A stretch of DNA of 64,000 bases from positions 61,192 to 125,191 of the forward strand of contig CALDDQ010000002.1 of assembly GCA_937936785.1 (NCBI GenBank), given 5' to 3'. Source of the DNA: an uncultured Endomicrobiia bacterium (lineage in GTDB: Bacteria > Elusimicrobiota > Endomicrobiia > DTEH01). Shown in pieces: positions 12,310 to 58,342 of this stretch (position 1 is the stretch's first letter; each line of letters begins with the position of its first letter). A program made the position numbers and the translations under genes. The notes beneath the pieces are model-generated. The model was not told where the DNA came from and made no database searches. It worked only from the letters and a program-made list of their open reading frames with translations.

Positions 12310-12316
12310 TTAAATA

Positions 12317-15572: not shown

Positions 15573-15592
15573 TTTTTATATAAATAGTTAAT

Positions 15593-16648: not shown

Positions 16649-16653
16649 AAATT

Positions 16654-17457: not shown

Positions 17458-17481
17458 AAATAAATATAATAGGAGAAAATT

Positions 17482-18102: not shown

Positions 18103-18108
18103 TATTTT

Positions 18109-19263: not shown

Positions 19264-20376
19264 TTGAATTTTATGAAATACAGGTATAAAAAATTTTTTT
19301 TATTTATATTTTTTTATTTTTTTTTGATAGAATATATTTTTTCATCTGGATATATTTATACAACAGCTTTAGGTAAGAAAATATCAAATAATGCAGTTGT
19401 AGTTGGGTTGGGGAATAACTTATCTTTAATAAATTCTTTATGTGTTATGAAATACAATCCCGCAAGTTTAGTAGACAACAAAAGTTTAACATTAGAAATT
19501 AATTATGGTTTTTATATTTTAGATGAAAGAATAATGGAAGACAAACTAAGGTTAGAAAAAAATAGTTATAATTATTTTACTACTCCAGAAATATCATTGT
19601 TTTATCCTATAAGAGCTAAAGAATCTTCTTTAAGTATAGGTTTTGGTTTAGGTTATGGTTCAGAATATGAAAATAATTATTCATATATTTCTGCGAGTAA
19701 TACGTATACAATAATCTCAAACATTGATTCAATGACAATGCCGATAGTTTTTGGTAGTGATAGAATATCTTTTTCTTTAAGTATTAAAAATATTTCAGGT
19801 ATAAAAAATGTAAATATTAATTCATCTAAAATAGAACATTCAATATCTGGCAATAGTATTGTGTTTGGTTCAAAGATAAAAATCTTAAATACTACTTTTG
19901 GTATTGGATATAATCCACAGACTGAACTTGAATTAAAAACTTCTTTATTTACACAAAAAGTGTCTTTTCCTGAAAAGATATTATTAGCATTTAAACAAGA
20001 TTTTTATATAGGATCAATTAAAGATTCAAGTGCATATTTGGAATTTGGATTAATGAACTATAGTAAAATTAAAATTGACAATATTGAAAGTGGATATAAT
20101 GACATTATGACAACTTCTATAGGTTTAGAAAAAAGTTTAAGTGAAGAGATGTTGTTAAGAATAGGTTTTTTTTATGAACCAAATTATATAATTCGTGGTA
20201 GTGTAAATAGTGGATTAAGTTGTGGACTAGGATATGATAAAAATAATTTACAGTTTAATTTAGGACTAAATTATAGTAAAGAAAACTATAAGGGAGATGA
20301 TATAATTTTTTCTACTAAAAAAGTTATTGATGAAAGTTATACAAACATAGTTTTAGGAATAAAATATAGGTTATAG
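19264..20376 (+). CDS. Outer-membrane beta-barrel protein, PorP/SprF/PorQ-like (putative T9SS-associated)
   Basis: Signal peptide; 'YNPASL' resembling the N-terminal NPAxxG motif of PorP/SprF. Alternating beta-strand pattern; C-terminal '...GIKYRL'. Paralogous to the 21846..22742 product. Confidence 0.4.
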   Translation: MNFMKYRYKKFFLFIFFYFFLIEYIFSSGYIYTTALGKKISNNAVVVGLGNNLSLINSLCVMKYNPASLVDNKSLTLEINYGFYILDERIMEDKLRLEKNSYNYFTTPEISLFYPIRAKESSLSIGFGLGYGSEYENNYSYISASNTYTIISNIDSMTMPIVFGSDRISFSLSIKNISGIKNVNINSSKIEHSISGNSIVFGSKIKILNTTFGIGYNPQTELELKTSLFTQKVSFPEKILLAFKQDFYIGSIKDSSAYLEFGLMNYSKIKIDNIESGYNDIMTTSIGLEKSLSEEMLLRIGFFYEPNYIIRGSVNSGLSCGLGYDKNNLQFNLGLNYSKENYKGDDIIFSTKKVIDESYTNIVLGIKYRL

Positions 20377-20430
20377 TTAATTTTAATGATTCGATAATTA
20401 TAAAATTATAAAATTTTAAAATTTTAAAAA

Positions 20431-21849
20431 ATGGTAAAAGATATTTATAATCTATTAAAAAATAAATATTTTAGAAATTTTTTTTTATCATTTACATTTT
20501 TTTTATTTAATTATATTTTTGCAGATCAGATAAATGTGTATTTTACAGATCCTACCAACAGTAATCCTGCTGTGAGTCAAATTTCATCTAACCAAAAACC
20601 GATAGATTTTGCGTTACGCGATTTTGTTTTATCGGCTAACAGTGGAACTACAATGTATGTTTGTATTTATGAAGTCAATAACACAACAATCACTACTGCA
20701 ATAGATGAAGTTGTTAACAGAGGGGTGAAAGTTTATTCCATATTTAATGTTGCTGTTAATACATCTGTTTTTAAGACAAACTTTTATTACAAACAATACG
20801 GTTCTTCTGGTTCTCAATATATGCACAACAAATTTGTAGTAATAAAAAGTTCCAAAGTGTGGACGGGGTCATACAACTTTACAGTTTCTGCAACAAAAGA
20901 ACAAGACAACTTTGCTTTAGAAATATTTTCAAAAGATTTGGCTGACATTTATGAGCAAGCTTTTAATTATATATGGGCCTATGGTAGTACAACAATTTCT
21001 ACGGAAGTTGCAAAATTTAATGGAAAAGAAATATTTGTAGATGGAATTTCTATAAAAACATACTTTAATCCATATTCACAAAATCCAGAACTTGCTTCAG
21101 TATTAGTGCAAAATTGGTATGATTCTTCAAACGAAATCTCAAAAGTGAGTAGTTTATACTTTTCTGTTGCATGGTTTACAGAAAGCAGTATTGTAAACAC
21201 AATTAAAACTTTAAAATCAAAAGGCGTATTGGTAAAAGGTATAATTGATGATGATAGTAAAAACTTTGATACTTACTATTCTTTATGGAATTCTTCTGTT
21301 CCAATATATTTTGATGCTAGAAGAACATCTTTTGGAAGTGGTCTTATGCATCACAAGTTTTGTGTTTCTGACCCATACAAAGTTTCAGGCAAAGTTATTG
21401 CCGGTTCTGCTAACTGGTCCGATAGTGCATTAAGAAGCGGTAGAGACAAAAATTACGAAAATATTTTAGTGATACAATCACAAAGTGTAGCAGAAAAATT
21501 TTATTTAGAATATTTAAGATTATATGAAAAAATTAGCGATATGTCATATAATAGTTTATCACAAGAGATAATATCAAAAATTAAATTATATCCTAATCCA
21601 GTAAAAACAAGTTTTAAAATAAGTTTTATTCCATCAATTGCTATAAAAAAAATTGATTTTTATATATACTCTATTTATGGTAGAAAAATTTTTGAACAAA
21701 AGAATGTAAGTTTTTATCCTGAAATTGAAAATATTGTTTTGATACAATTACCCTTGGATATAAACGATGGTATATATTATTTTGTTATAGAAGCAAGTGT
21801 ATTCCAAGATAGAAAAAAATATTATCAAAAATTTGTTGTAGAAAAATGA
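20431..21849 (+). CDS. Secreted phospholipase D (HKD)-superfamily protein with T9SS type-A C-terminal sorting domain
   Basis: Signal peptide. Two HKD-like motifs: 'MHNKFVVIKSS...GSYNFT' (degenerate) and 'MHHKFCVSD...IAGSANWS'. C-terminal 'LYPNPVKTSF...IYSIYGRKI...GIYYFVIEA...KFVVEK' matches a T9SS C-terminal domain. Confidence 0.65.
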   Translation: MVKDIYNLLKNKYFRNFFLSFTFFLFNYIFADQINVYFTDPTNSNPAVSQISSNQKPIDFALRDFVLSANSGTTMYVCIYEVNNTTITTAIDEVVNRGVKVYSIFNVAVNTSVFKTNFYYKQYGSSGSQYMHNKFVVIKSSKVWTGSYNFTVSATKEQDNFALEIFSKDLADIYEQAFNYIWAYGSTTISTEVAKFNGKEIFVDGISIKTYFNPYSQNPELASVLVQNWYDSSNEISKVSSLYFSVAWFTESSIVNTIKTLKSKGVLVKGIIDDDSKNFDTYYSLWNSSVPIYFDARRTSFGSGLMHHKFCVSDPYKVSGKVIAGSANWSDSALRSGRDKNYENILVIQSQSVAEKFYLEYLRLYEKISDMSYNSLSQEIISKIKLYPNPVKTSFKISFIPSIAIKKIDFYIYSIYGRKIFEQKNVSFYPEIENIVLIQLPLDINDGIYYFVIEASVFQDRKKYYQKFVVEK

Positions 21850-22742
21850 AAAAAAAAATAACACACAAAATATTTTTTTTATTTATGGTAAACACTTTTT
21901 TTTGGTTAAACTTGAACGCAGATATTAACGAAATATTTTTATTGCCAAGTTCTATTGAAGAAAGTGGTTTAATGACATCATTATATTCTATAAGTCAAGA
22001 TATTAATTCTATTTTTTACAATCCAGCAGGGATTGCTATTAATAACATAAAACGTTTTGGGTTAAATTATTCAATTTTATTTGACAATATAAAATCTGGT
22101 AGTGTTATTTTAAACTTTCCAACAAAAAAAAATAATTATTCTTTTGGTATTAAATATAATGATTTAGGAGATATAACTTTTTATAATGATTATGGAGAAA
22201 AACTTGGTGTTAAAAATTTATATGCATACAGAATAAATATTGGTTTTGGTAATGAACTGTTTATTTCAGGGTTATATTTAGGAATAAGTTTAGGCGTACA
22301 AAATATAGTTTTAAACAAAGAATATTTTCTTACCACATTAAATATTGGCGGAATATATATAATTCCAATACAAGAAACAGAGGTGCATATCGGTAGTAAT
22401 ATTGGTTCACAATACAATTTTGTTGAAAAAAAAGTTATATTAACACCATCTTTAGGGATGAAATATTTTTTACCGGAATACAAAAGTTTTGTTTCTTTAG
22501 CATATAAAATTATAGATAGGACAGATTTTTATAGTTTTGGTTTAGAATTAAGTTTTATTAAAAATATAAATTTGATTTTAGGTTATGAAATATCTACTCA
22601 AATAAAAGATTGGAATAATAATTTTGGAATAGCAACTAAAATAAATTTAACTAAAAGGCAAGATTTTAGTATTGGGTTTGGATATAGAACGTTAAACAAT
22701 TTGGGAAATATTTTATCAACAAGTATAGAATTTAGATTATGA
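21846..22742 (+). CDS. Outer-membrane beta-barrel protein, PorP/SprF/PorQ-like (putative T9SS-associated)
   Basis: Signal peptide; 'IFYNPAGIAIN' matches the SprF/PorP NPAG motif; C-terminal '...SIEFRL'. Overlaps its neighbours by 4 nt on each side (operon). Confidence 0.45.
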   Translation: MKKKITHKIFFLFMVNTFFWLNLNADINEIFLLPSSIEESGLMTSLYSISQDINSIFYNPAGIAINNIKRFGLNYSILFDNIKSGSVILNFPTKKNNYSFGIKYNDLGDITFYNDYGEKLGVKNLYAYRINIGFGNELFISGLYLGISLGVQNIVLNKEYFLTTLNIGGIYIIPIQETEVHIGSNIGSQYNFVEKKVILTPSLGMKYFLPEYKSFVSLAYKIIDRTDFYSFGLELSFIKNINLILGYEISTQIKDWNNNFGIATKINLTKRQDFSIGFGYRTLNNLGNILSTSIEFRL

Positions 22743-23644
22743 AAAAAATTTTTTTAATAATAACATTGTTCATAAACAATATTTTTGCATTGCAACGAGC
22801 AGAATATTTGTTAAAAGAAGAATATGTTCGTTCACAGAAAGATTTGGAAGTAATATTTTTGGATGTAGGACAAGGAGATTGTTCTTTTATAAAAACACCT
22901 TCAGGAAAAACGTTACTGGTGGATGGTGGTGGTTCGCCATATTGGTTAGGGGAAGATGTGTGGGATCCTGGAAAAAATGTTATAATCCCGTATTTAAAAT
23001 CAAGAAATATTCAAGAACTTGACTATATTATAATATCACATCCTCATGGTGACCATTTTGGTGGTATTTTTGCAGTTTTAGAAAATATTAAAGTAAAAAC
23101 TTTCATTGACAACGGTTATGTTGAAGGAGATCCTAATTATAAAGACTTATTATTATTAGTTAAAAGAAAAGTATTGGTTTATGAACAAGTTAAAGAAGGT
23201 GATGAAATAAAATTAGACAAAGATATTTTTATTAGAGTATATTTTCCGCCAAAAAGAGGATTTCCATTTGAAGGTGGTAATAATTCTTCAATAATATTTA
23301 GTTTAATTTATAAAAATTTTTCTGTATTATTTACAGGAGATGCAGAAATGGATTTAGAAAATTATCTTATAAGTAAACATAAAAATTCAATAAATTCTAA
23401 TGTGTTAAAAATTCCGCATCATGGTTCAAGAACATCGTCCACAGTAAGATTTATTAAAACAGTAAATCCTGATGTTGGAATATTTTCAACTGGTAGAAAA
23501 AATCGTTTTGGTCACCCACATAGAGAAGTGGTATCAAGATATAGTAAGTTAAATGTAGATATTTACAACACAGCTGAAGAAGGTAATATTGTTGTGTTGT
23601 CAGACGGAGAAAGATTTACGGTATATTCAAATGTTGGTGAATAA
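22739..23644 (+). CDS. Exported MBL-fold metallo-hydrolase, ComEC/Rec2 C-terminal-domain-like
   Basis: Signal peptide; 'IIISHPHGDHFGG' HxHxDH motif; 'IPHHGS'. Confidence 0.7.
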   Translation: MKKIFLIITLFINNIFALQRAEYLLKEEYVRSQKDLEVIFLDVGQGDCSFIKTPSGKTLLVDGGGSPYWLGEDVWDPGKNVIIPYLKSRNIQELDYIIISHPHGDHFGGIFAVLENIKVKTFIDNGYVEGDPNYKDLLLLVKRKVLVYEQVKEGDEIKLDKDIFIRVYFPPKRGFPFEGGNNSSIIFSLIYKNFSVLFTGDAEMDLENYLISKHKNSINSNVLKIPHHGSRTSSTVRFIKTVNPDVGIFSTGRKNRFGHPHREVVSRYSKLNVDIYNTAEEGNIVVLSDGERFTVYSNVGE

Positions 23645-23721
23645 TTTTTGGTTATAAAAAATGTATTTTTTTATAATTATTGACAATTTATAAAAAATAA
23701 TTTATTAAAGACAACATTCTT

Positions 23722-23794
23722 GGGCCCGTAGCTCAGCTGGTAGAGCACCAGCCTTTTAAGCTGGCTGCCGAGAGTTCGAATCTCTCCGGGCTCA
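23722..23794 (+). tRNA. tRNA-Lys (anticodon UUU)
   Basis: Cloverleaf folded by hand: acceptor GGGCCCG/CGGGCUC (one G-U pair), D-arm GCUC/GAGC, anticodon stem CCAGC/GCUGG with loop CUUUUAA (anticodon at 23755-23757), T-arm GAGAG-UUCGAAU-CUCUC, discriminator A. CCA is not encoded. Confidence 0.9.
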
Positions 23795-24085
23795 GTTTTT
23801 ACTATCCGTTAAGTAGTGTGAAAATTTTTAAGTATTATCTTTTATAATCTATTTAAATTGATAGATTTGTATTTTAATAATTTTATAATACTTGCAAATA
23901 AAAAAACAAAAATATTTTTATCTATGAGATTGTTATAAATGGAAATTAATCTGTGGGTTTTTAATAAATTATTAAAAAAATCTAAAAAATAGTTTATATC
24001 ATAAATTTTTTATCAGTATTTTTTCTGGTCCATACTATACTTATTTTTTTAGTTATAAAAAATTCATTTATCTAATAGTCTTCAA

Positions 24086-24114: not shown

Positions 24115-24200
24115 ATGATATATTTACAAGATAAAACGGTTTAAATTAAACAAAATATTTTTATTATAATTAGTGTTAACATTTATTGGAGGTAAGAGAT

Positions 24201-24509
24201 ATGCTTTTTGCACGGGTAATTGGCAATGTTGTTTGTACAAGAAAAGATGATAAATTGAAAGGTTCAAAATTGTTATTGGTCCAACCTGTAGATTTAGAAA
24301 ATAATCCTAAAGGGAATCCTATTGTGGCAGTTGACGCAGTTGGTGCAGGAGAAGGTGAGATGGTTTTGATAGTACAAGGTTCTTCTGCTCGTCAGACAAA
24401 GTATACTGAAGGTACACCTGTAGATTGTACAATTTTTGCAATTGTAGATTCAGCAGAACGTGATGGAAAAAAAGTTTTTAACAAAACACAGGATTATGAT
24501 AAAAGATAA
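24201..24509 (+). CDS. BMC vertex protein (BMC-P; EutN/PduN/CcmL family)
   Basis: 'MLFARVIGNVVCTRK...LLLVQPVD...AVDAVGAGEGEMVLIVQGSSAR'. GGAGG RBS 8 nt upstream of ATG 24201 (the ORF-track start 24186 lies further upstream). Confidence 0.85.
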   Translation: MLFARVIGNVVCTRKDDKLKGSKLLLVQPVDLENNPKGNPIVAVDAVGAGEGEMVLIVQGSSARQTKYTEGTPVDCTIFAIVDSAERDGKKVFNKTQDYDKR

Positions 24510-24552
24510 GGTTTAGTCGTTAACTAAAATTCTATGAAAATTAAACAGGAGA

Positions 24553-26010
24553 ATGTTTATGGTACAAATTACCGAATCTGAACTAAAAAATTTAGTAGAA
24601 CTTGTTTTACAGAGATTAGAACAAAGAAATATAAATTTTGATAATAGTCATACAATTGAGACAGGTATAAATTATTCTAAGTATCATTTATGTTTAACTG
24701 TAGAAGAAGCAGTTACAAGAGCAAAATACGCACAAAAAATATTTCAAAGTTTAGGTCTTGAGAAAAGAAAAGAAATTATAGATAACATCAGAAGAAAAAG
24801 TTTAGAAAATGCACAATATTTAGCACAAATTACTGAAGAAGAAACCAAAATGGGCCGTTGGGAAAATAAGGTAAAAAAAAATGTTTTAGCAGCAATAAAA
24901 ACGCCCGGTGTGGAAGATATTCAGCCTGTAACAGCATACACAGGAGATCATGGTTTGACTTTGGTTGAATATGCACCTTATGGAGTAATTGCTGCTGTTA
25001 CACCATCAACAAATCCAACTTCGACAATAATTAACAATTCAATTTCAATTTTATCAGCAGGAAATTCTGTAATTTTTGCTCCACACCCATCAGCAAAAAA
25101 ATGTTCTCAAGAAACTATAAGAATAATTTATGATGCAATAGTAGAATGTTCTGGTCCGAAAGATTTGATATTAACTATAGATCCGCCTTCTGTAGAAGCA
25201 ACGCAGTCATTATTAAAACATCCTGATATAAAATTGGTAGTTGTTACTGGAGGTCCAGCGATAGTGAAAGTAGCGATGCAGAGTGGTAAAAAAACGATAG
25301 CTGCGGGACCTGGAAATCCGCCTGTAGTAGTAGATGAAACAGCTGTGTTTCCAAAATGTGTAAATGACATAATAGATGGTTCGAGTTTTGATAACGGGAT
25401 TTTGTGTACTGCAGAAAAAGAAGTTATTTTAGTTGAAAGCGTAAAAGAAAAGTTTATATCATACATGCGCAGGGAGACTCGTGCTTACGAACTAACAAAA
25501 GAACAGATGGACCATTTAGCAAAACTTGCAATAAAAGAACCTGCAGGACCACACTGTAAAGAAGGTGTTATAAATCGTGATTTTGTAGGTAAAGATGCAA
25601 ATGTTATTGCTAAAAGTATTGGTTTAAATTTATCTGAAGATATAGTTTTATTATGGGGAGTTGTGCCTAATGATCATCCATATATATGGACAGAACAACT
25701 TATGCCAGTTTTACCCGTTACGGTAGTAAAAGACATTGATGAAGCAATAGATCTTGCAGTTAAGGTTGAAGGAGACAATCATCATACTTTTATAATACAT
25801 TCGTTAAATGTTGACACATTGACAAAAATGGCAAAAGCATGTCAAGGATCAATTTTGGTAAAAAACGGTCCTTCATTTATGGGGTTAGGTTTTGGTGAAG
25901 GATATGCTACCTTAACAATAGCGACACCTACAGGCGATGGTCTTACAAAAGCAAAAAATTTTACAAGACCATTAAGATGTGTTTTGGTAGATTATTTAAG
26001 GATAGTATAA
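24553..26010 (+). CDS. CoA-acylating aldehyde dehydrogenase (PduP/EutE-like), BMC-encapsulated type
   Basis: 485 aa ALDH fold; 'GILCTAEKE' catalytic-Cys region. N-terminal amphipathic 'SELKNLVELVLQRLEQ' resembles an encapsulation peptide. Confidence 0.85.
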   Translation: MFMVQITESELKNLVELVLQRLEQRNINFDNSHTIETGINYSKYHLCLTVEEAVTRAKYAQKIFQSLGLEKRKEIIDNIRRKSLENAQYLAQITEEETKMGRWENKVKKNVLAAIKTPGVEDIQPVTAYTGDHGLTLVEYAPYGVIAAVTPSTNPTSTIINNSISILSAGNSVIFAPHPSAKKCSQETIRIIYDAIVECSGPKDLILTIDPPSVEATQSLLKHPDIKLVVVTGGPAIVKVAMQSGKKTIAAGPGNPPVVVDETAVFPKCVNDIIDGSSFDNGILCTAEKEVILVESVKEKFISYMRRETRAYELTKEQMDHLAKLAIKEPAGPHCKEGVINRDFVGKDANVIAKSIGLNLSEDIVLLWGVVPNDHPYIWTEQLMPVLPVTVVKDIDEAIDLAVKVEGDNHHTFIIHSLNVDTLTKMAKACQGSILVKNGPSFMGLGFGEGYATLTIATPTGDGLTKAKNFTRPLRCVLVDYLRIV

Positions 26011-26032
26011 TTTATTTAATAAAAAAAAGTTT

Positions 26033-27358
26033 ATGGATGAGATAATTTATAGAATAAAAAGTGCTGGTATAGTAGGTGCAGGTGGTGCTGGGTTTCCAAC
26101 ATATTTTAAGTTAGAATCTGCAAAAGGTAAAGTTGATACTTATATAATCAATGCAGCCGAGTGTGAACCGTTATTAAAAGTTGACCAACAAATTTTAAAA
26201 GTTTATACAGAAGAAATTTTATCTGCAGCAAAGAAAGTTGGTGATTATCTCGGAGTGAAGAAGATTGTTATAGGAATAAAAGAAAAGTACAAAGATGCTA
26301 TAGAAGTTTTAGAAAAAAGTATCAAACAATATAATAATATAGAACTATATTTGTTAGAAAATTTTTATCCTGCAGGGGATGAGTTTACCTTAATAAACGA
26401 AGTTACAGGCAGGATTATTCCGGAGGGCGGGTTACCAGTAAATGTTGGTTGTGTGGTAAATAATGTTGTTACATTACTAAACATTTATAACGCAATTGAA
26501 AAAAATATTTCTGTTATTACGAGACCTGTGAGTATTGTAGGTGAAGTAAAAGATCCAAAAACTTTAATAGTTCCGGTTGGGACAATTATTAAGGATTTAA
26601 TAAAATTATGCGGTGGGACAACAGTGGAACATTTTGCGATTATTGATGGTGGTCCGATGATGGGAAAAGTTGTCTGTGAAGATGATGTTGTTACAAAACG
26701 TACTTCAGGTATACTTGTGTTACCTTTAGAACATCCTGTTGTTATTATGAAAACAGTATCTGAACATCAGTATTTGTATCAGATAAAATCTGCTTGTGAA
26801 CAATGCCAGGATTGTACCGAAATTTGTCCGAGGTATTTGTTGGGTCATGAATTTGAATGTCACAAGATTCAAAGATCTGTGTCATATCAAATAGACGAAT
26901 TTTTAACACAAGCGTTTTTATGTTGTGAATGTGGACTTTGTGATTGGGTTTGTCCTATGTATCTATTACCAAGAAAAACAAACCAGTTAGTGAAACAAAT
27001 TTTAATAAAAAAAGGAATAAAAAATTCGCATAACAAAAAACCTGATAATGTTCGTGCAACAAAAGAATATAGAAAAGTGCCTGTAGAACGTTTAATTTCA
27101 AGATTTAATTTAACAGAATATTTATCAAAAGAAGCACCTTTAGAATTAGATGTTAAAGAATTTTCTGTTGTTAAAATACCTTTGGTACAACACATTGGCG
27201 CAAAACCTGTTTCTGTGGTAAAAGTTGGAGATGAAGTAAAAAAGAATGATTTGATATCTGTCATAGATGATTACAAATTAGGGACAAATCATCATGCATC
27301 AATAGATGGTAAAATAATTTTAGTTAATGACGAACATATTGTAATAAGCAAAAATTAG
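26033..27358 (+). CDS. pduS: PduS-like / RnfC-like Fe-S flavoprotein (BMC-associated)
   Basis: 'SAGIVGAGGAGFPTYFKL...INAAECEPLL' RnfC/PduS N-terminal motif. Two 4Fe-4S motifs: 'CEQCQDCTEICP' and 'CCECGLCDWVCP'. Confidence 0.8.
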   Translation: MDEIIYRIKSAGIVGAGGAGFPTYFKLESAKGKVDTYIINAAECEPLLKVDQQILKVYTEEILSAAKKVGDYLGVKKIVIGIKEKYKDAIEVLEKSIKQYNNIELYLLENFYPAGDEFTLINEVTGRIIPEGGLPVNVGCVVNNVVTLLNIYNAIEKNISVITRPVSIVGEVKDPKTLIVPVGTIIKDLIKLCGGTTVEHFAIIDGGPMMGKVVCEDDVVTKRTSGILVLPLEHPVVIMKTVSEHQYLYQIKSACEQCQDCTEICPRYLLGHEFECHKIQRSVSYQIDEFLTQAFLCCECGLCDWVCPMYLLPRKTNQLVKQILIKKGIKNSHNKKPDNVRATKEYRKVPVERLISRFNLTEYLSKEAPLELDVKEFSVVKIPLVQHIGAKPVSVVKVGDEVKKNDLISVIDDYKLGTNHHASIDGKIILVNDEHIVISKN

Positions 27359-27372
27359 TGGAGGCATAATTT

Positions 27373-27927
27373 ATGCAATCATCATTAGTATTATTAGAAT
27401 TAAATTCAATTGCTCGTGGGCTAGAAACTGCAGATGCAATGTGCAAAGTTGCCACAGTAAATTTGATTGATGCATATGCAATTTGTCCTGGGAAATATAT
27501 CATAATAATAAACGGTTTATTAGCAGATGTGCAGTCATCTTTAAACAAAGGTATAGAAGTTGCGCAGCAACATTTAATTGATAAGTTGTTAATACCTAAC
27601 ATTAGTCCAAAAATTATTCCTGCAATATTAGGAACGTCAAAGATAAGACAAAATATAATTTCGTTAGGTTCTATAGAAACATTTTCAGCAGCAAGTTGTA
27701 TTGTTGCATCAGATTTAGCATCGAAAAAAGCAGATGTTGATTTGATAGAAATACGATTAGCAAAAGGTTTAGGTGGAAAATCGTATGTAACATTATGTTC
27801 TGATGATGTAGGTGCAGTAAAAAGTGCAATTAACGAAGCTGTAATTTATACCAAAAAAAATGGTTCACTGGTACAAAAAACAGTTATTCCACAGATACAT
27901 CCTGATATGTTAAAAACAATTTTATAG
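27373..27927 (+). CDS. pduT: Tandem-BMC-domain shell protein (BMC-T), PduT-like with Fe-S-ligand cysteine
   Basis: 184 aa, the same length as PduT. Two BMC domains ('LVLLELNSIARGLETADAMCKVATV' and 'SLGSIETFSAASCIVASDLASKKADV'). 'AICPGK' corresponds to the PduT [4Fe-4S]-ligating Cys. Confidence 0.8.
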   Translation: MQSSLVLLELNSIARGLETADAMCKVATVNLIDAYAICPGKYIIIINGLLADVQSSLNKGIEVAQQHLIDKLLIPNISPKIIPAILGTSKIRQNIISLGSIETFSAASCIVASDLASKKADVDLIEIRLAKGLGGKSYVTLCSDDVGAVKSAINEAVIYTKKNGSLVQKTVIPQIHPDMLKTIL

Positions 27928-27948
27928 GGATTATGATGTGAGGGAAGT

Positions 27949-28401
27949 ATGAATATAGTAATAGGTTCAGACCATGGAGGGTTTAAATTAAAAGAAATAT
28001 TAAAAAAGTTTTTGCAATTACAAAATCATACTGTGGCAGATTTTGGTTGTTATTCGGAGGAACCTGTTGATTGGACAGACATTGCATTATTAGTAGCAGA
28101 ATCGGTAAAGGACAGATATTATGATTTTGGTATTTTGATTGACGGGTTTGGTGGAGCTGTATGTCTTGCAGCAAACAAGGTTAAAGGAGTTCGTGCAGTT
28201 TGTGCATATAACGAATTTTCAGCTAGATTAGCAAAAGAACATGACGATGCAAACATACTATGTCTTGGTGGCAAGACAGTTGGTGATTTGGAAAATATTG
28301 AAATCGTGAAATCCTTTTTGTCAGCACTGCCTGCGAAAGATGAAAAATATTTACGTAGGTTAAAAAAGTTGGATGATATTGAAAAAAAATATTTTAAATA
28401 A
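27949..28401 (+). CDS. Ribose-5-phosphate isomerase B / LacAB-family sugar-phosphate isomerase, paralogue 1 (divergent)
   Basis: 'IVIGSDHGGFKLK'; 'GILIDGFGGAVCLAANKVKGVRAV' (Asp where RpiB normally has the catalytic Cys). Confidence 0.75.
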   Translation: MNIVIGSDHGGFKLKEILKKFLQLQNHTVADFGCYSEEPVDWTDIALLVAESVKDRYYDFGILIDGFGGAVCLAANKVKGVRAVCAYNEFSARLAKEHDDANILCLGGKTVGDLENIEIVKSFLSALPAKDEKYLRRLKKLDDIEKKYFK

Positions 28402-28407
28402 AAAATT

Positions 28408-28875
28408 ATGAACTTAGCAATAGCTTCAGATCATACAGGGTTTGAGATAAAAAAAAATCTTGTTAAAAAACTTAATAATGAAGGGTATAATGTAATAGAT
28501 TTTGGTTGTTATAGTGATGAAAGTTGTGATTATCCTGATTATGCAATAAAAGTATCAAAAGCTGTTCAAAGAAAAGATGCAAAATTTGGGATATTAATTT
28601 GTGGTAGTGGTATAGGGATGAGCATTGTTGCAAACAAATTTAAAGGTATTCGTGCAGGATTGTGTTTTTCGGAAGAAACAGCCAAACTTATTGCAGAACA
28701 CAATTTCGCAAACATAATATGTTTACCTGCAAGAATAAAAGTTTGTGGTGAGAATATATCCGAGGATAAACTTTATTTATGGATAAAGATCTGGTTAACA
28801 ACTTCAAATTCAACTGAAGATAGGCATATTAACAGAATAAAAAAAATTGAGTTGTTAGAGAAAGAGATTTTGTAA
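28408..28875 (+). CDS. rpiB: Ribose-5-phosphate isomerase B (RpiB/LacAB family), paralogue 2 (canonical)
   Basis: 'LAIASDHTGFEIK'; 'GILICGSGIGMSIVANKFKGIRA' with the conserved Cys. Confidence 0.8.
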   Translation: MNLAIASDHTGFEIKKNLVKKLNNEGYNVIDFGCYSDESCDYPDYAIKVSKAVQRKDAKFGILICGSGIGMSIVANKFKGIRAGLCFSEETAKLIAEHNFANIICLPARIKVCGENISEDKLYLWIKIWLTTSNSTEDRHINRIKKIELLEKEIL

Positions 28876-28900
28876 AAAGTTTTTTAAAGAGGCTAATGTT

Positions 28901-29299
28901 ATGATAAAAAAAATGTATTTATTAACAATGATACTTTTTCAAACAATTGTCTATGGACAAGAAAATTTAGATGATATTATAAAATTGTTAAACTCAGGAC
29001 AAAATGACAATGCAATAAACATGTTAAAATCTTTGGGTTCTGATAATGAAATATTGTTTGCGATAGCATATCTTGAGAAAAAAGATTTTTCTAATGCTAA
29101 AAGTTATGCTTTAAAAAGTTTTTCAAAAAATTCTAGTATTGTGGTTGCAAGTTATATTTTAGCACAGATATATGAAGAGCAGAAAGATTATTTAACTGCA
29201 ATAAAATATTGGGACAACGTATATCGTAATGCAAAAGATAAGACAGTGAAAATGTTAGCAAAAAAACAGTGTGAAGTTTTAAAAGTTTTAACAAAATGA
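28901..29299 (+). CDS. Small exported TPR-like protein
   Basis: Signal peptide 'MIKKMYLLTMILFQTIVYGQ'; helical repeat-like composition. No family recognised. Confidence 0.35.
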   Translation: MIKKMYLLTMILFQTIVYGQENLDDIIKLLNSGQNDNAINMLKSLGSDNEILFAIAYLEKKDFSNAKSYALKSFSKNSSIVVASYILAQIYEEQKDYLTAIKYWDNVYRNAKDKTVKMLAKKQCEVLKVLTK

Positions 29300-29877
29300 A
29301 AATAATATATAATACAACTGCCAAATTTTTAATTTTATTAACCATGTTGTTTTATGTTGGTTGTACGCTAACGCCAAGAGGTGTGTTTTATAAAGATTTT
29401 GACCCGAGAAGAATTTCAGTTATTTCAGTAGGACAATTTACAACTTCAAGTGGTAATGCTATTAGTGACTATGTGAAAAATTTAATGATACAAAATTTGT
29501 TAGCAAGAAACTTTACTGTAAAAGAAGTTAACTCGGAAGATGTAGATTATGTATTATTAGGGAGTGTAACAAAATTTTTGCCAGAGAAAAAATTTTTAGT
29601 ATACACAGGGACAAACAAACAACAAGTAATGTTAGGTGGTCCTTTGACAGAAATTAGTGGTAGTAATGTGTACAACATTGGCACTGCATTTGGTGTTTCG
29701 GATGGAGAAATAGTTGTTACTAACGCTACAGTAGGAGTTAGTGCGAGGTTAGTAGAAAAAAGAACAGGTAATGTTGTCTGGAGCAGTTCATTTTCGTACG
29801 AAGCGCTAACTGCAGATACTGCAGCAGAAATTGTTGCAAATTATTTGATTACTTCATTGACAGGGTTAAGAAGATAG
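29296..29877 (+). CDS. Putative lipoprotein
   Basis: Signal peptide with lipobox-like 'LFYVGC' followed by a Ser/Thr/Gly-rich beta-type domain. No family recognised. Confidence 0.4.
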   Translation: MKIIYNTTAKFLILLTMLFYVGCTLTPRGVFYKDFDPRRISVISVGQFTTSSGNAISDYVKNLMIQNLLARNFTVKEVNSEDVDYVLLGSVTKFLPEKKFLVYTGTNKQQVMLGGPLTEISGSNVYNIGTAFGVSDGEIVVTNATVGVSARLVEKRTGNVVWSSSFSYEALTADTAAEIVANYLITSLTGLRR

Positions 29878-29902
29878 CTCTAAACAAGGAGAATAAAAAA
29901 TT

Positions 29903-30193
29903 ATGCAAGCAGGGATAGTAGTAGGCCGTGTTTGGGCAACACAAGAATATGAAAGTTTGAAAGGAAAAAAATTGTTGTTAGTATTACCAACAACATGGGA
30001 TAAAAAAATTAAATCTAATGATCCGATTGTTATGGTAGATACAGTAGGTGCGGGTGCAGGTGAGTTTATTTTTTATGTTTCATCTAGAGAAGCAGCAGTA
30101 GCTTGTGGTGGCAACAGTTTAAAAGATACACCTCCGGTAGATGCAGCTATTGTTGGAATAATTGATGGAATAAATTTAACAGAGGAATTATAA
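29903..30193 (+). CDS. BMC vertex protein (BMC-P; EutN/CcmL family), paralogue 2
   Basis: 'MQAGIVVGRVWATQEYESLKGKKLLLV...MVDTVGAGAGEF'. Confidence 0.85.
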   Translation: MQAGIVVGRVWATQEYESLKGKKLLLVLPTTWDKKIKSNDPIVMVDTVGAGAGEFIFYVSSREAAVACGGNSLKDTPPVDAAIVGIIDGINLTEEL

Positions 30194-30492
30194 TGTTTAT
30201 AGCAAAAGTTGTAGGAAATCTTTGGGCTACAAGAAAACATAAAAGTTTAGAAGGTGGAAAACTTTTATTAGTAAAAAAGTGTGATGGTTTAACAGGCAAG
30301 TTTTACAATGAAGAACCATCTTTAGCAATTGACATAAATATTGGAGCAGGTATTGGCGATATTGTTTTAGTTATGGATGAAGGCAGTTCTGCTAGACAAA
30401 TTCTAAACAACAAAATTGCTCCTGTTAGAACAATAGTATGTGGAATTATTGATTTGGTAAATTCTGGCAAACAAACAAAAAAATGGCATTAA
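30193..30492 (+). CDS. BMC vertex protein (BMC-P; EutN/CcmL family), paralogue 3
   Basis: 'MFIAKVVGNLWATRKHKSLEGGKLLLV...AIDINIGAGIGDIVLV'. Start overlaps the upstream stop by 1 nt. Confidence 0.8.
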   Translation: MFIAKVVGNLWATRKHKSLEGGKLLLVKKCDGLTGKFYNEEPSLAIDINIGAGIGDIVLVMDEGSSARQILNNKIAPVRTIVCGIIDLVNSGKQTKKWH

Positions 30493-30530
30493 ATGTTAAG
30501 ACAAAAAAAAATTAAGGAGTTAAATAGATT

Positions 30531-32027
30531 ATGAAAAACTTGTTATGTATTTTAATGGGTGGAGACAGAAATTTGCAAACAGCGTTTAATGCAGTGAAAG
30601 AGTTTACAAAAATTTTTATAGTAAAAATTTTTGTAAGCAAATCAGCAACACAAATTATTGGCACAGAAAAGATAAAGTCAGAATTAAGAGGTTGTGAAAT
30701 TATTATACCAAACGGAGAATATCTTGACCCACATAAATTATCTAATTGGGCAGATGTTTTAGTTATTCCGATTTTAACTTTGAACGGTTTGGCAAAAATT
30801 GTAAATCTTATGCCAGATAGTCAACAGATTAATATTACGATTGGTTGTCTGGAAAAAGGTATTCCAGTGATTGTATCAAAGGATAGTGTATTTTGTTCTT
30901 GTTATCCAGACCCTTCTGTGAACAGTCCATTATATAGAAAAGTAGAACAAAATTTGTCAGAGTTAAAATCATTAGGGATAACAGTTTCTACAGGTGAAAA
31001 TTTAGTTAACAATGTTTTAATACAATGTGGTATGGTAGAAAGTGTGATAAAACCATCTTCAGGTGGGAAAATTTTTTCTAACAACAAAATAATTAATGTA
31101 ACTTCAACTACACTTGGAAAAAATTTTGTTTCTGATAATGTAAATGTTACGATAGGTTCAGCAGGAAAAATATTTTCTAAGCCTCTAACAAAAAGTGGTA
31201 ATATTATTGATGATATTTGTGTCGCATTTAAGTTGAGTGACACATCACAAAATTTAGAATGTTTAAGTTGTGGAAAATGCGTAGAACGAAAAAAAAGATC
31301 CGTAGCACAAGTAATAAATGCTGGTGCAGATAGAATTGCTGCATATGATGTAAAAGATGTTGGGAAAGAAATTGCTCCATTAATAGATCACACCTTACTT
31401 AAAGCAAATGCAACTCAAGAAGAGATTGTAAAATTGTGTGAAGAAGCGAAGAAATATAAGTTTGCTTCTGTATGTGTCAATCCCGCATATGTAAATTTGT
31501 GTAAGCAACTATTAGGATCAAGTTCAGTAAAGGTATGCACAGTGATAGGGTTTCCGTTGGGAGCAACAACTTCGACTGTCAAAGCAATAGAAACAAAAGA
31601 AGCAATTGCAAACGGTGCAGATGAAGTTGATATGGTAATAAATATAGGTGCACTAAAATCAGGAAATTATCAATTGGTTTTTGATGACATTAAATCTGTT
31701 AGGGAAGCCTCTAGAGGAAAAATTTTAAAGGTAATAATTGAAACTGCATATTTAACTAAAGAAGAAAAAATTAAAGCATGTGAATTGTCCAAAGAAGCAG
31801 GTGCAGATTTTGTAAAAACATCAACAGGATTTGGACCTTCAGGTGCAACAGCAGAAGATATTGCATTAATGAAATTTGTTGTTGGACCTAAAATTGGTGT
31901 TAAAGCTTCTGGTGGAATACGTTCATTAGATGATGCAGTAAAAATGGTGAAAGCAGGAGCGACACGAGTAGGAGCTTCTGCTTCAGTAGCAATTGTAAGA
32001 GGTGAAGTTGGTAAAAGTAAATATTAA
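30531..32027 (+). CDS. deoC: Fusion protein: N-terminal degenerate flavoprotein (HFCD/CoaC)-fold domain plus Cys-rich linker plus C-terminal class I deoxyribose-phosphate aldolase (DeoC)
   Basis: C-terminal about 230 aa are near-canonical DeoC ('[11 protein letters not shown]', '[11 protein letters not shown]', Schiff-base Lys in '[10 protein letters not shown]', '[10 protein letters not shown]'). N-terminal 'CILMGG...[18 protein letters not shown]...LKSLGITV' resembles the flavoprotein fold but lacks the FMN-binding signatures. Linker carries 'ECLSCGKC'. Confidence 0.8.
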
Positions 32028-32107
32028 AAAAACAGTTAACTAAAAAATGACAGTAAATAAAATTTTATAAAAAACCCGTGGAAAAATTTTTTATACAGGA
32101 GGAATTT

Positions 32108-32404
32108 ATGGAAGAGAAAGATGCAGTAGGAATGATAGAAACGCGCGGAATGGTTGGTATGGTAGAAGCCACAGATGCAATGGTAAAAGCGGCAAAGGTT
32201 AGACATATTGGGTATGAAAAGGTTGGGACAGGTTTAGTAACAACTTTTGTAAGAGGAGAAGTTGGAGCAGTGAGAGCTGCAGTTGAATCTGGTGCTGCCG
32301 CAGCACAGAAAGTTGGTGAGTTAGTTTCTGTCCATGTAATTCCGCGTCCACATGAGTATTTGGAAAAATTGTTGTCTAAAATAGAAAAAGATTTTGAAAA
32401 ATAA
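32108..32404 (+). CDS. BMC hexamer shell protein (BMC-H; PduA/EutM-like)
   Basis: 'AVGMIETRGMVGMVEATDAMVKAAKV...GEVGAVRAAVESG'. Start taken at ATG 32108, which follows a GGAGG RBS; the ORF-track start 32078 is a GTG. Confidence 0.85.
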   Translation: MEEKDAVGMIETRGMVGMVEATDAMVKAAKVRHIGYEKVGTGLVTTFVRGEVGAVRAAVESGAAAAQKVGELVSVHVIPRPHEYLEKLLSKIEKDFEK

Positions 32405-32455
32405 AAACTTTTTATTCCAAATTTTAATGATTTTAATTTTTTGATAAATTTTTAA

Positions 32456-32770
32456 ATGAATAAAGAAGTTATTGTTGAGATTATTATTGAAGAACTTAAG
32501 AAACTTGGTTATTATGTTAATACAGAATCTCAATCAACAAATTTGGCTAAAAATTATAAATCAGGTTTTTTTACCAAAGAAAAATATATAAAAAGTGTAA
32601 CATCATTACCACCGGGTAAAAAATTAATTACAGAATATGATGTTAGACAGTATATTAAACTAAAAAATAACACAAAAGAATTTATAGTTCCAGAAAATGT
32701 TATTATAGGTCCTTTAGCAGAAGATTTAATAAATAGTTTAGAACTAAAGATTGTAAAGAAAAAAGGTTAA
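32456..32770 (+). CDS. Hypothetical protein (104 aa) immediately downstream of BMC-H
   Basis: ORF only; no recognisable motifs. Confidence 0.3.
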   Translation: MNKEVIVEIIIEELKKLGYYVNTESQSTNLAKNYKSGFFTKEKYIKSVTSLPPGKKLITEYDVRQYIKLKNNTKEFIVPENVIIGPLAEDLINSLELKIVKKKG

Positions 32771-56488: not shown

Positions 56489-58342
56489 ATGTTAAAAATA
56501 TTTATATGTTGTTTAATTATTTTTTCTTGCAACCTTTATAGCAATAATTTTAAAGATGAAAATTTTATTGCAGGGATAGCATTAAAAGATTTTGGATTTC
56601 CCGGGTGGGCAAAAAAATATACGGCATCAACTTTAGATGCTGTAAGAAATTCTGCTGCAAAGTGGGTAAGTGTCCATTATTTTAATTCTTATACTTCAAC
56701 TGGTACACCAACAATAGCATCTTCTTATAAATCAGATGGGTATAGTTCTAACCAAGCAAAACTTGATGAATATAAATATGTAATCCAAGAAGCAAAAAAA
56801 CGTGGATATAAAATTTGTTTAATTTCATCATTATTTTTTGGTGAGATGTTAGGTGGGTTATCTGTGGAAGAAGAGGTAGCATTAAATGAATCATTATACA
56901 TTGCTCACAGTAATGATTGGTATGATAACTGGTTTAATTCTTATAAAGAAAGATTAACAGAACTTGCAAATTTAGCAAACGAGTCTGGTGTAGATATGTT
57001 AGCATTAGGGTGGAACATTACTTATGTTACAGGTGATGTGAAAGGTTCTTATGATGTAACATCTAAGTGGAAGGAAATTATTAATGATTTGAGAAAAATA
57101 TATAAAGGAAAAATAATTTTACCTGAAACAACTAATGGTTATGACAATAACTATCTAAAAGGTATAGAAGGACTTTTTAATGATTTAGATTATATAAGTT
57201 TACATCTTACAATGGATGGTTTAAAAGGTTTTAGTGGAAAAAAATACATAGAAGATATTGACGAAATAAAAACAACTTTTAAAATAATTTTTTCCACTTT
57301 TGGTTTTTCAAGATATTATCAATATTATGGCAAGAAAACAATAATTTTTACTACTGTAACAAGCAGCACAAGATGTTTTGAGGGAGTATGGTTTGAAGAA
57401 ATGGTGGAACAACCAGGACTAATTCAAGATTTTGATGCACAAAAAAATGTTTATCAGGCAATGTTTGATGTACTATCTTCTACAGATTGGATTGGAGGGA
57501 CATTTCCGTGGGGATATTGGTGGAAAGATGATTTTTATAAAAACGAAGATGGGAATAATACATATTCTTTTGACAAAGGTGCTTCTATAAGAAAAAAGCC
57601 ATCTGAAGAAGTTGTATATAATTTTTATAGTGTAGAAGAAAAAAAACTTTTATTAAACACTACAACATATTATGAAATTTTTTTAAATAACAAAAATAGT
57701 TTTACAAAGATAATTATCCCAGAAGGAACTTTTAACCAAAATGTTAATATTACAATTTCTACTTTAAGTACTTCAGGTATTACAAAAAGAACAACAAAAG
57801 GAGATGCACAGTTGACTAATATTGGTATTGAGATAAAAACAGATTTAGATTTACAGCCAAGTAAAGGAATAGTAATAGAGACATATTATAAAGATAGTGA
57901 CATAGAACAGATAACAAATGATGAGTCAAAATTAACTTTTGTAATGGTAAACGAAGAAACGAATTTTTTGGATGAAATAAAAAGTATAGTTAATTCTGAT
58001 TATAACCAGATAACAACAACTACTACACACTTATCAAAGTTTGTAATTATTTTACCTTCACAGACAAATCTCTCTGAAGCAAAGGTTGTTATTTATCCAA
58101 ATCCGTTTAATCCGCACAAAAATTTAAATGTTACAATCAAATATTATCCAGCTGATGCTACCGCAACAGTTTACAACCTTTCAGGAGAATTAGTTACTAG
58201 TCTTGTTTATGACAGTTTTTCTGGTAAAACAACTTGGGATGGAAAAAATTCTGGTGGAAACATGGTAGCCAGCGGTATATATTTTGTTTTAATAAAAACA
58301 AACACAAAATCTGCAACTGGCAAAATTGCAGTAATAAAATAA
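56489..58342 (+). CDS. Secreted protein with T9SS type-A C-terminal sorting domain; N-terminal TIM-barrel glycosidase-like region (family not determined)
   Basis: Signal peptide. C-terminal 'VIYPNPFNPHKNLNVTIKYY...ATVYNLSGELV...GIYFVLIKT...GKIAVIK' matches a T9SS C-terminal domain. No catalytic family recognised by eye. Confidence 0.55.
   Translation: MLKIFICCLIIFSCNLYSNNFKDENFIAGIALKDFGFPGWAKKYTASTLDAVRNSAAKWVSVHYFNSYTSTGTPTIASSYKSDGYSSNQAKLDEYKYVIQEAKKRGYKICLISSLFFGEMLGGLSVEEEVALNESLYIAHSNDWYDNWFNSYKERLTELANLANESGVDMLALGWNITYVTGDVKGSYDVTSKWKEIINDLRKIYKGKIILPETTNGYDNNYLKGIEGLFNDLDYISLHLTMDGLKGFSGKKYIEDIDEIKTTFKIIFSTFGFSRYYQYYGKKTIIFTTVTSSTRCFEGVWFEEMVEQPGLIQDFDAQKNVYQAMFDVLSSTDWIGGTFPWGYWWKDDFYKNEDGNNTYSFDKGASIRKKPSEEVVYNFYSVEEKKLLLNTTTYYEIFLNNKNSFTKIIIPEGTFNQNVNITISTLSTSGITKRTTKGDAQLTNIGIEIKTDLDLQPSKGIVIETYYKDSDIEQITNDESKLTFVMVNEETNFLDEIKSIVNSDYNQITTTTTHLSKFVIILPSQTNLSEAKVVIYPNPFNPHKNLNVTIKYYPADATATVYNLSGELVTSLVYDSFSGKTTWDGKNSGGNMVASGIYFVLIKTNTKSATGKIAVIK

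Follow-up and report, generated by a model that had tools for sequence, protein, structure and literature searches.

A stretch of 64,000 nucleotides (nt) from an uncultured Endomicrobiia bacterium of the phylum Elusimicrobiota, hereafter the window (contig CALDDQ010000002.1, positions 61,192 to 125,191), carries a module of four genes for exported proteins. They encode a phospholipase D (PLD)-superfamily enzyme of the nuclease type that ends in a C-terminal sorting domain (CTD) resembling those of type IX secretion systems (T9SS), two outer-membrane barrels (OMP1 and OMP3) and a stand-alone metallo-beta-lactamase (MBL) related to the nuclease domain of ComEC. With a probability somewhat better than even, the four genes represent a reduced copy of a conserved cluster that would bind and degrade nucleic acid at the cell envelope, or serve DNA uptake. 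The preference for nucleic acid arises because all domains that could be recognised in the conserved cluster are either nucleases or binding modules associated with nucleic acid or DNA, namely PLD, MBL, the ComEA helix-hairpin-helix (HhH), SpoVG and LTD. The last of these is described by Pfam as co-occurring with secreted MBL proteins and other phosphoesterases.

According to the sequence comparisons presented below, T9SS-style pairs of a CTD and a PorV-like barrel are coupled in this cluster to nucleases and DNA-binding proteins, which extends CTD-PorV biology outside the FCB group. The host is of importance here because descriptions of T9SS are confined to Bacteroidota and other FCB phyla.

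The exported enzymes and the sorting domain

The central protein of the module, PLD, is matched by PLDc_2 (PF13091) in two stretches (E = 3e-33; 114.8 bits against a cut-off of 27; Pfam). Both HKD-like motifs that a preliminary description of the sequence had noticed in this 472-aa protein could be located. The first comprises H132-x-K134 and G146-S-x-N149 (nt 20824-20877), the second H307-x-K309 and G325-S-x-N328 (nt 21349-21414), and both are invariant across 30 homologues (alignment A1). When compared with PDB, the family profile matches nuclease-branch PLD proteins only: Zucchini/PLD6 (7.5e-18), Nuc (5e-11) and NucT (2e-7). The best NCBIfam matches of the protein are likewise NucT, a membrane-associated nuclease tied to DNA uptake in Helicobacter and a member of a competence-associated nuclease family. 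By these relationships, PLD is classified as a two-HKD enzyme of the nuclease branch (Zucchini/Nuc/NucT-like), and nucleic acid is strongly favoured over phospholipid as its predicted substrate. Its closest homologues, with 50-66% identity, come from metagenome-assembled genomes of Endomicrobiia and other Elusimicrobiota, and the close homologues all pair PLDc_2 with Por_Secre_tail or FlgD_ig. The best match among the GTDB representatives searched, which do not include this species, is 56% identical, and a scan of metagenomes yielded a single short contig.

The CTD of PLD comprises the last 92 residues (aa 381-472, nt 21571-21846) and has YPNP near its start (aa 387-390, nt 21589-21600). Two of its residues, Gly417 (within nt 21676-21687) and Lys467 (within nt 21826-21846), are at least 90% conserved among 30 family members. 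A Gly in the loop between strands beta3 and beta4 and a Lys in the last strand are described as functionally required in type-A CTDs (PMC11285876). Gly417 and Lys467 would correspond to these determinants, with the strands assigned from the sequence pattern. The CTD part of the PLD family profile also matches two CTDs in PDB, that of PorU (1.4e-3) and that of a Flavobacterium johnsoniae substrate (8glj_D, 1.8e-3). The C-terminal position, the YPNP motif and the conserved Gly and Lys thus agree with the preliminary description in that PLD carries a T9SS-type CTD. Calling it a "textbook" type-A domain went too far, since the tail scores 22.5 bits with Por_Secre_tail (PF18962), below the Pfam gathering cut-off (GA) of 27, and 20.5 bits with TIGR04183, below the cut-off of 23. 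It is best regarded, from its residue pattern, as a T9SS type-A-like CTD just under the curated cut-offs.

A second CTD-bearing protein is encoded in the same genome, a GH113 glycoside hydrolase with a type-A CTD (Table 1). Its CTD lies above the cut-offs of both Por_Secre_tail (28.5 bits; GA 27) and TIGR04183 (35.1 bits; cut-off 23), and therefore this genome uses T9SS-type sorting domains. The protein is also matched by a hidden Markov model (HMM) built from the CTDs of the PLD family (E = 5e-7). No PorV-like barrel gene adjoins the GH113 gene, which is followed (locus 56489-61846) by a gene for a 1160-aa protein with two F5/8 type C (discoidin) domains.

The second enzyme, MBL, is encoded by the last gene of the module. 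The preliminary description had attributed a ComEC-type MBL motif to this exported protein, and this proved correct: the motif, HPHGDH, is found at aa 101-106 (nt 23039-23056), Lactamase_B matches the protein (E = 1e-19; Pfam), and the MBL domain of ComEC (9ic4_A, 9e-54) and ComEC itself (30bt_A, 6e-50) are found in PDB. TIGR00361 (ComEC_Rec2) yields 158.8 bits (cut-off 190), with a match confined to model positions 439-663, the MBL part. The protein has a signal peptide and lacks both the transmembrane competence domain and a CTD, and these features suggest that it is probably periplasmic. ComEC's C-terminal domain is a DNA endonuclease that depends on Mn2+ and is important for transformation (PMC8579336).

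The two enzymes also brought anti-phage defence into consideration, with PLD as a DrmC-like protein and MBL as an Avs1a-like or 6A-MBL-like one. This reading was rejected because the scores lie far under the cut-offs (23.8 versus 133 and 43.7 versus 420) and because all the proteins are exported and encoded together with outer-membrane barrels.

The outer-membrane barrels and the question of a type IX secretion system

The genes on either side of PLD encode the two barrels. Both proteins had been expected to be beta-barrels, and the structures modelled with AlphaFold2 (AF2) agree, each with 14 strands. They had also been taken for PorP/SprF-like proteins and for paralogues of each other, neither of which holds.

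OMP3, the barrel downstream of PLD, appears to resemble the PorV/PorQ family (PF19572). Its AF2 model (pLDDT 86, pTM 0.80) has an N-terminal helical plug, and the highest query-normalised TM-score is obtained with PorV (0.68). In NCBIfam, it scores 45.2 bits with PorV_fam (NF033709; cut-off 90), 32 with PorQ and 19 with PorV, all under the curated cut-offs. A search with the single sequence gives two weak matches only. The family diverges too fast for a word-indexed search and was thus assembled via synteny, resulting in an alignment of 17 sequences, all from Elusimicrobiota (A2). With the profile of this alignment, the best match in PDB is PorV of F. johnsoniae (6h3i_F, E = 8.2e-15), followed by TbuX (0.0095), and the profile reaches genuine Bacteroidia PorV proteins in a large protein database. 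With 298 aa as against 402 aa, OMP3 lacks about 100 residues in comparison with PorV, and its shortness implies that the extracellular loops with which PorV binds CTDs may be missing. An identical copy of OMP3 is present in the Logan assembly of run ERR9287890, which represents the same organism (L083; L-numbers denote related loci fetched for comparison).

OMP1 precedes PLD and is predicted to have a fold like that of FadL/TodX (PF03349) and BamG, consisting of a barrel of 14 strands and an NPA-containing hatch at the N-terminus. Its AF2 model (pLDDT 88.4, pTM 0.86) was compared by Foldseek, which gave FadL with E = 2e-13 and a query-normalised TM-score of 0.75, as against 0.53 for PorV. The profile of its family (A4) matches TodX (2e-25), BamG (1e-12) and PorV (8e-11) in PDB; BamG is a subunit of Bacteroidota BAM complexes. 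The OMP1 sequence alone finds no Pfam match and reaches 23.2 bits with PorV_fam (cut-off 90). The family is small, with 22 representatives among 1.84 billion proteins.

The preliminary description had pointed to NPA(S/G) motifs like those of PorP/SprF. NPA does occur near both N-termini, in the plug of OMP1 (aa 65-67, nt 19456-19464) and in OMP3 (aa 59-61, nt 22020-22028), but not as a PorP/SprF marker; we take it to be the hatch motif of the FadL/PorV superfamily. The PDB matches to the OMP1 model include the "delta NPA", N33A and P34A mutants of FadL. An identity of the flanking barrels as PorP/SprF is ruled out by the absence of any HMM signal, as TIGR03519 and PF11751 match neither OMP1 nor OMP3 at E <= 1. 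In Pfam, none of 17 cluster barrels matches PorP/SprF. When 24 barrels from related clusters were scored against NCBIfam, PorV_fam matched 21 (best 5e-45), PorV2 13, PorQ and PorV 11 each, PorP/SprF (TIGR03519, E <= 0.01) three and BamG two. Close paralogy of OMP1 and OMP3 is likewise ruled out, with a BLASTP comparison that is not significant (E = 0.036). Their families are homologous at the profile level only (hhalign 99.1%, E = 1e-18), that is, as distant members of one superfamily.

The presence of CTDs next to PorV-type barrels raises the possibility of ordinary T9SS cargo. A complete canonical T9SS (SprA/Sov, PorKLMN, PorU/Z) would then be encoded elsewhere in Endomicrobiia, with PLD as a type-A substrate and OMP3 as PorV or PorQ. 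The type-A-like pattern of the PLD tail with its conserved Gly and Lys would be expected under such a scheme, as would a GH113 protein that clears both CTD cut-offs and barrels that match the PorV, PorQ and PorV2 models. The type-B arrangement of Bacteroidota also has a counterpart, in that giant proteins of relatives bear weak CHU_C (type-B CTD) tails and are followed by a barrel, which in L087 matches PorP_SprF. However, T9SS genes have been reported in Bacteroidota/FCB phyla only and as absent from other phyla (PMC4793230; PMC11285876), and a literature search found no paper that links T9SS to Elusimicrobia or Endomicrobium. SprA/Sov, PorK/L/M/N (GldK/L/M/N), PorU and PorZ are all missing among the 59 open reading frames (ORFs) of the 64-kb window in Pfam and NCBIfam, and T9SS core genes are missing from about 12 related 20-kb loci. 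Furthermore, the clusters hold several PorV-like barrels, each beside a CTD protein, whereas canonical T9SS has a single general PorV (PMC12398890). Ordinary T9SS cargo is hence considered rather unlikely.

Gene order, the full cluster of relatives and the genomic neighbourhood

The module was delimited by ORF calling on the window and consists of four ORFs in the same orientation (+ strand, 19264-23644; Table 1). Tight coupling of all four genes through 4-nt overlaps had been described; this applies to the PLD/OMP3 and OMP3/MBL junctions, both with an ATGA overlap, but not to OMP1 and PLD, which are separated by 54 nt. For OMP1, the true start is probably ATG 19273 because an AAGAGG ribosome-binding site abuts TTG 19264. 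A gene for a WecA-type glycosyltransferase (GT4) ends 27 nt upstream of OMP1. As read from the translations, all four proteins have signal-peptide-like N-termini, and a lipobox cysteine occurs in none of them. The window is very AT-rich (G+C 0.24-0.32; composition profile). A promoter scan was uninformative under these circumstances, with 57 promoter-like sites versus 50 expected, and near the module end the sole terminator-like match falls inside the tRNA-Lys gene.

For comparison, ORFs were called in all fetched loci and then searched iteratively. An OMP3-family barrel immediately follows PLD in all 13 distinct Elusimicrobiota-type loci that have downstream sequence (the window, L001, L003, L004, L005, L007, L008, L009, L085, L087, L089, L091 and L092; the records of L007 and L009 state no taxonomy), with PLD identities down to about 30%. 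The truncated locus L084 also begins an OMP3 orthologue after PLD (56% identity). In Chloroflexota, Bacteroidota and other phyla, only one of about 70 PLD loci (L071) has an OMP3-family barrel in its flank. MBL is next in order in the window, L007, L008, L089 (two copies), L091 and L092, with orthologues of 37-42% identity, and the 4-nt overlaps recur in L092 and L008. A reduced order of GT4, OMP1, PLD and OMP3, to which MBL is added in the window, is common to the window, L084 and L093 and stands at the end of a polysaccharide cluster; the OMP1 orthologues at this position in L084 and L093 are 56% identical. The Endomicrobiia loci L001, L085 and L087, exceeded in closeness only by L084 and L093, lack MBL, and their cluster is followed by genes for a pilin and for a prepilin peptidase (PilD).

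The full cluster is seen in L091, L092 and L007. It begins with a giant fn3/LTD protein, a PorV-like barrel and an exported protein with three SpoVG domains. PLD, a PorV-like barrel and MBL come next, and then an LTD/TP_1001 protein and a PorV-like barrel fused to two ComEA HhH repeats (TIGR00426, 87 bits; cut-off 53). The order ends with a protein of about 780 aa, which has a ComEA repeat at its N-terminus and ends in an aromatic residue resembling that of the beta-signal of outer-membrane proteins, and with a FadL-like barrel. In L007, this last barrel is a full-length homologue of OMP1. CTD-like tails are carried in L007 by the giant protein, PLD, the LTD protein and a 332-aa protein after the last barrel, and not by the SpoVG protein or MBL, so that four CTD-tailed proteins are accompanied by four barrels.

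Judged by gene order and homology, the module of the window is a reduced copy of this cluster of about ten genes, which is conserved across Elusimicrobiota. Paired barrels around the cargo had seemed unusual at first; they are explained by the alternation of CTD-tailed proteins with FadL/PorV-type barrels in the full cluster, of which the window holds a reduced copy.

Several variations among the relatives deserve a record of their own. The fusions of barrel and ComEA repeats and the 720-790-aa protein that follows them lie at 13364-16986 in L001, 9372-13073 in L007 and 16709-20624 in L091, and this second protein ends in W or F. Its C-terminal part of about 600 residues has no match in PDB or NCBIfam. 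Exported proteins of 370-394 aa with three SpoVG domains are found between a PorV-like barrel and PLD in L007 (3580-4692), L008 (2311-3495), L091 (10939-12096) and L092 (10986-12131); an extracytoplasmic SpoVG protein is unusual. Some Elusimicrobiota have a PLD variant of about 650 aa with an extra TP_1001_2nd (PF26342) domain (L005 9983-11953, P0045-P0051), and the barrel-HhH fusion comes directly after it. Barrels upstream of PLD in L003 (8736-9929), L085 (8716-9888) and L087 (8570-9910) show an N-terminal extension of about 100 aa that matches models of a four-helix bundle or of 23S rRNA intervening-sequence proteins (TIGR02436; PF05635). This extension may be a separate small gene merged with the barrel gene by ORF calling.

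The ComEA fusions of the relatives suggest a further function, natural transformation. The cluster would provide its missing outer-membrane stage, PLD and MBL would process incoming DNA in the manner of NucT or EndA and of ComEC's C-terminal domain, and the copy in the window would be a remnant that keeps only the nucleases. Endomicrobium species conserve and express comEC, comF, comM, dprA and recA; the outer-membrane step of their DNA uptake is unclear, their retained pilD and pilins have been called "puzzling", and ComEA is never mentioned (PMC8809381). The cluster would fill this gap with a PorV-like barrel and a large outer-membrane protein, each fused to ComEA HhH domains that exceed the TIGR00426 cut-off, with the pilin and PilD genes next to it in Endomicrobiia relatives and with the NCBIfam match of PLD to NucT. 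The window itself holds no ComEA-barrel gene, pilin or PilD, and its neighbours, like those of L089, point to catabolism or salvage rather than transformation. In addition, transforming DNA would be liable to destruction by two non-specific nucleases. A role of the module as part of a competence machine is accordingly rated as decidedly unlikely.

The catabolic surroundings begin 540 nt beyond the MBL gene, separated from it by nothing but tRNA-Lys. Here, a locus for a bacterial microcompartment (BMC) of the sugar-phosphate-utilising (SPU) type is found. SPU BMCs, which are defined by DERA, RpiB and shell genes and known from Elusimicrobia, have a predicted role in the catabolism of deoxyribose-5-phosphate derived from DNA (PMC11585597). 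The locus of the window combines DERA/DeoC (PF01791), two genes of the RpiB family (PF02502) and BMC shell genes, the latter of the BMC-H and EutN/CcmL types. In the distant relative L089, DUF3006 precedes the module, and adenosine and cytidine deaminases, a Na/Pi cotransporter, a uridine kinase, an HD dGTPase-like protein, an AP endonuclease and a HIT protein are encoded around it. These two independent contexts suggest a use of the breakdown products.

On the other side, the module is preceded by a surface-polysaccharide cluster of about 19 kb (157-19236), with genes for a tyrosine-kinase-like AAA_31 protein, a flippase, several GT2 and GT4 glycosyltransferases, asparagine synthase, methyltransferases, WbqC, DegT, a PIG-L deacetylase and the WecA-type GT4. 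It also encodes an ExeA/PEP-CTERM-type ATPase (16654-17457; TIGR03015, 235 bits, under the cut-off) and a 482-aa PHP-domain protein (13449-14897). The position of the module directly after the WecA-type GT4 that ends this cluster, shared by L084 and L093, would fit a function in the remodelling of envelope lipids or glycans. PLD would then act on phospholipid, cardiolipin or a phosphodiester-linked surface polymer, MBL would be a phosphodiesterase like the pneumococcal phosphorylcholine esterase, and the FadL-like barrel would move lipid, all as members of the polysaccharide cluster upstream. JGI labels homologues as cardiolipin synthase-like, members of the FadL family transport hydrophobic molecules, and MBL has a weak match to CbpE in PDB (2e-4). 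The polysaccharide link is, however, limited to the closest relatives, and in ten other loci the module is surrounded instead by genes for DNA-binding proteins or nucleases. By structure and by sequence, the PLD domains are most closely related to nucleases and not to cardiolipin synthases, and the match of MBL to ComEC is stronger than that to CbpE by about 50 orders of magnitude. Lipid or glycan remodelling is for these reasons very improbable. The preliminary description had spoken of a secreted, cell-surface module with outer-membrane partners that degrades nucleic acid or phospholipid. What stands is a coupled, exported, hydrolytic module of the envelope with its own barrels, for which nucleic acid is favoured and phospholipid is kept as a weak rival.

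Other features of the window concern its overall organisation. All 59 ORFs of at least 90 aa (greedy non-overlap filter) lie on the + strand. The G+C content changes in a step exactly at tRNA-Lys (about position 24000), from 0.24-0.27 over 1-24000, which includes the polysaccharide cluster and the nuclease module, to 0.31-0.32 in the microcompartment locus. A PilT-like T2SSE ATPase (359 aa) and a 276-aa protein without a family match (together 32850-34778) are encoded just upstream of dnaA, which lies mid-window (34790-36694) and is unusually long, with 634 aa. The cumulative GC skew climbs steadily across the window without a switch at dnaA, and the replication origin is thus apparently not beside this gene.

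Table 1. Positions of the module genes, the adjoining microcompartment locus and the second CTD protein within the window
Feature	Position (nt)	Strand	Description
OMP1	19264..20376	+	370 aa; exported, predicted 14-stranded FadL/TodX/BamG-like outer-membrane barrel with N-terminal plug
PLD	20431..21849	+	472 aa; PLD-superfamily nuclease-type enzyme with signal peptide, two HKD motifs and type-A-like CTD
OMP3	21846..22742	+	298 aa; exported, predicted PorV/PorQ-like 14-stranded barrel with N-terminal helical plug
MBL	22739..23644	+	301 aa; exported stand-alone ComEC-type metallo-beta-lactamase nuclease domain
tRNA-Lys (UUU)	23721..23795	+	ARAGORN and Rfam; downstream boundary of the module
SPU-type BMC locus	24186..32770	+	Precomputed Pfam on L083, same organism
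Aldehyde dehydrogenase	24553..26010	+	SPU locus
RnfC-like protein	26033..27358	+	SPU locus
Two RpiB-family genes (PF02502)	27949..28875	+	SPU locus
DERA/DeoC (PF01791)	30531..32027	+	SPU locus
GH113 glycoside hydrolase with type-A CTD	56489..58342	+	Second CTD-bearing protein in the same genome

Proposed mechanism and comparison with known systems

The favoured function, binding and degradation of nucleic acid at the envelope, would proceed as follows. After Sec export, the CTD would dock the PLD nuclease onto the cognate PorV-like barrel encoded by the neighbouring gene and thereby hold PLD at the outer membrane. This would follow the carrier and cargo logic of T9SS, but with a dedicated carrier. 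PLD would then cut extracellular or incoming DNA or RNA, and the MBL nuclease, which has no CTD, would complete the degradation in the periplasm. The FadL-fold OMP1 may be a further carrier or a channel of the same system. The products would feed the catabolism of nucleosides, phosphate and deoxyribose, with deoxyribose-5-phosphate handled by the neighbouring SPU microcompartment. In relatives whose cluster includes ComEA-barrel fusions, pilin and PilD, it may also feed DNA uptake.

Some observations speak against this mechanism. No route is known by which folded PLD could reach the surface in the absence of a SprA-like translocon, and the protein could be periplasmic instead. Its CTD scores under the curated cut-offs, and the loops of the shorter OMP3 may not form a CTD pocket like that of PorV. 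Two barrels stand against one CTD cargo in the module, and the GH113 protein has a CTD without an adjoining barrel; the pairing is thus not strictly one-to-one here. The characterised FadL-fold proteins carry hydrophobic molecules and not nucleic acid. Lastly, the adjacency of the SPU BMC is found in this genome only.

A bolder proposal, tentative and on the whole doubtful, is that Elusimicrobiota possess an undescribed outer-membrane apparatus that captures, degrades and takes up DNA and is built from T9SS-like parts. Each CTD-tailed protein (the LTD adhesin, the PLD nuclease and the LTD protein) would have its own PorV-like barrel, ComEA would be fused to barrels, and neither SprA nor PorKLMN would take part. 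The window would then represent the nuclease core of this apparatus, placed beside a deoxyribose-phosphate microcompartment. If so, the CTD-PorV carrier pair would predate the T9SS translocon or be separable from it, and the apparatus would supply the missing outer-membrane step of Endomicrobium DNA uptake.

T9SS-type sorting domains and PorV-type carriers are held to be hallmarks of Bacteroidota/FCB, and here they occur in Elusimicrobiota as conserved cargo-carrier gene pairs for nucleases and DNA-binding proteins. Should a full T9SS be present in Elusimicrobiota, its known phyletic range would grow; should it be absent, the CTD-PorV pair would be independent of the translocon, which bears on T9SS evolution. 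The cluster is also a concrete candidate for answering how, in Endomicrobium, DNA crosses the outer membrane without a complete pilus or secretin system and with no ComEA found (PMC8809381). Finally, the predicted exported nucleases beside the SPU microcompartment would support the proposal that these organelles burn DNA-derived deoxyribose.

Among known systems, type-A cargo of T9SS and its PorV (SprA-PorV-substrate complexes of F. johnsoniae, 6h3i and 8gl6-8gln) is a close parallel to PLD and OMP3. Like such cargo, PLD combines a Sec signal peptide with a C-terminal Ig-like sorting domain of about 90 aa that has the YPNP start, the Gly and the Lys. OMP3 shares with PorV the 14-stranded FadL-related barrel with an N-terminal plug, and its family profile matches PorV best. 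The architecture of PLDc_2 plus Por_Secre_tail occurs in Bacteroidota as well, for example in Hymenobacter. The window differs in that it belongs to Elusimicrobiota, that SprA, PorKLMN and PorU were not seen in it or in related loci, that OMP3 is about 100 residues shorter and that the PorV, PorQ and CTD scores stay under the curated cut-offs. Moreover, Elusimicrobiota loci have several PorV-like barrels, each beside a CTD protein, instead of one general shuttle.

With type-B substrates of T9SS and their PorP/SprF-like carriers (SprB-SprF, PG1035-PorP), the module shares the order of a cargo gene directly followed by the gene of its own outer-membrane carrier. The resemblance extends to relatives, in which a barrel, in one case matching PorP_SprF, comes after a giant adhesin-like protein whose CHU_C tail is weak. 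The barrels of the window, in contrast, give no PorP/SprF signal, only three of 24 cluster barrels match TIGR03519, and the tail of PLD is type-A-like.

DNA uptake by ComEA and type IV pili has in common with the cluster of relatives the ComEA-type HhH domains, the pilin and the prepilin peptidase. In these relatives, the ComEA domains are fused to outer-membrane barrels and not free in the periplasm, and no secretin was seen; the copy in the window lacks these genes. The C-terminal MBL nuclease domain of ComEC and the MBL of the module are alike in their strong homology, the HxHxDH motif and their location outside the cytoplasm. MBL is, however, not a ComEC: it is free-standing and exported, has neither a competence channel nor an OB domain, and its gene accompanies those of outer-membrane proteins.

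The SPU microcompartment adjoins the module as the predicted consumer of deoxyribose-5-phosphate from DNA breakdown, but it is a neighbour outside the conserved cluster and adjacent in this genome only. The Nuc/NucT/Zucchini branch, lastly, shares its HKD catalytic motifs with PLD and provides its best sequence matches. The known enzymes of this branch have a single HKD motif and dimerise, whereas PLD of the window unites both HKD halves in one chain and adds a sorting domain.

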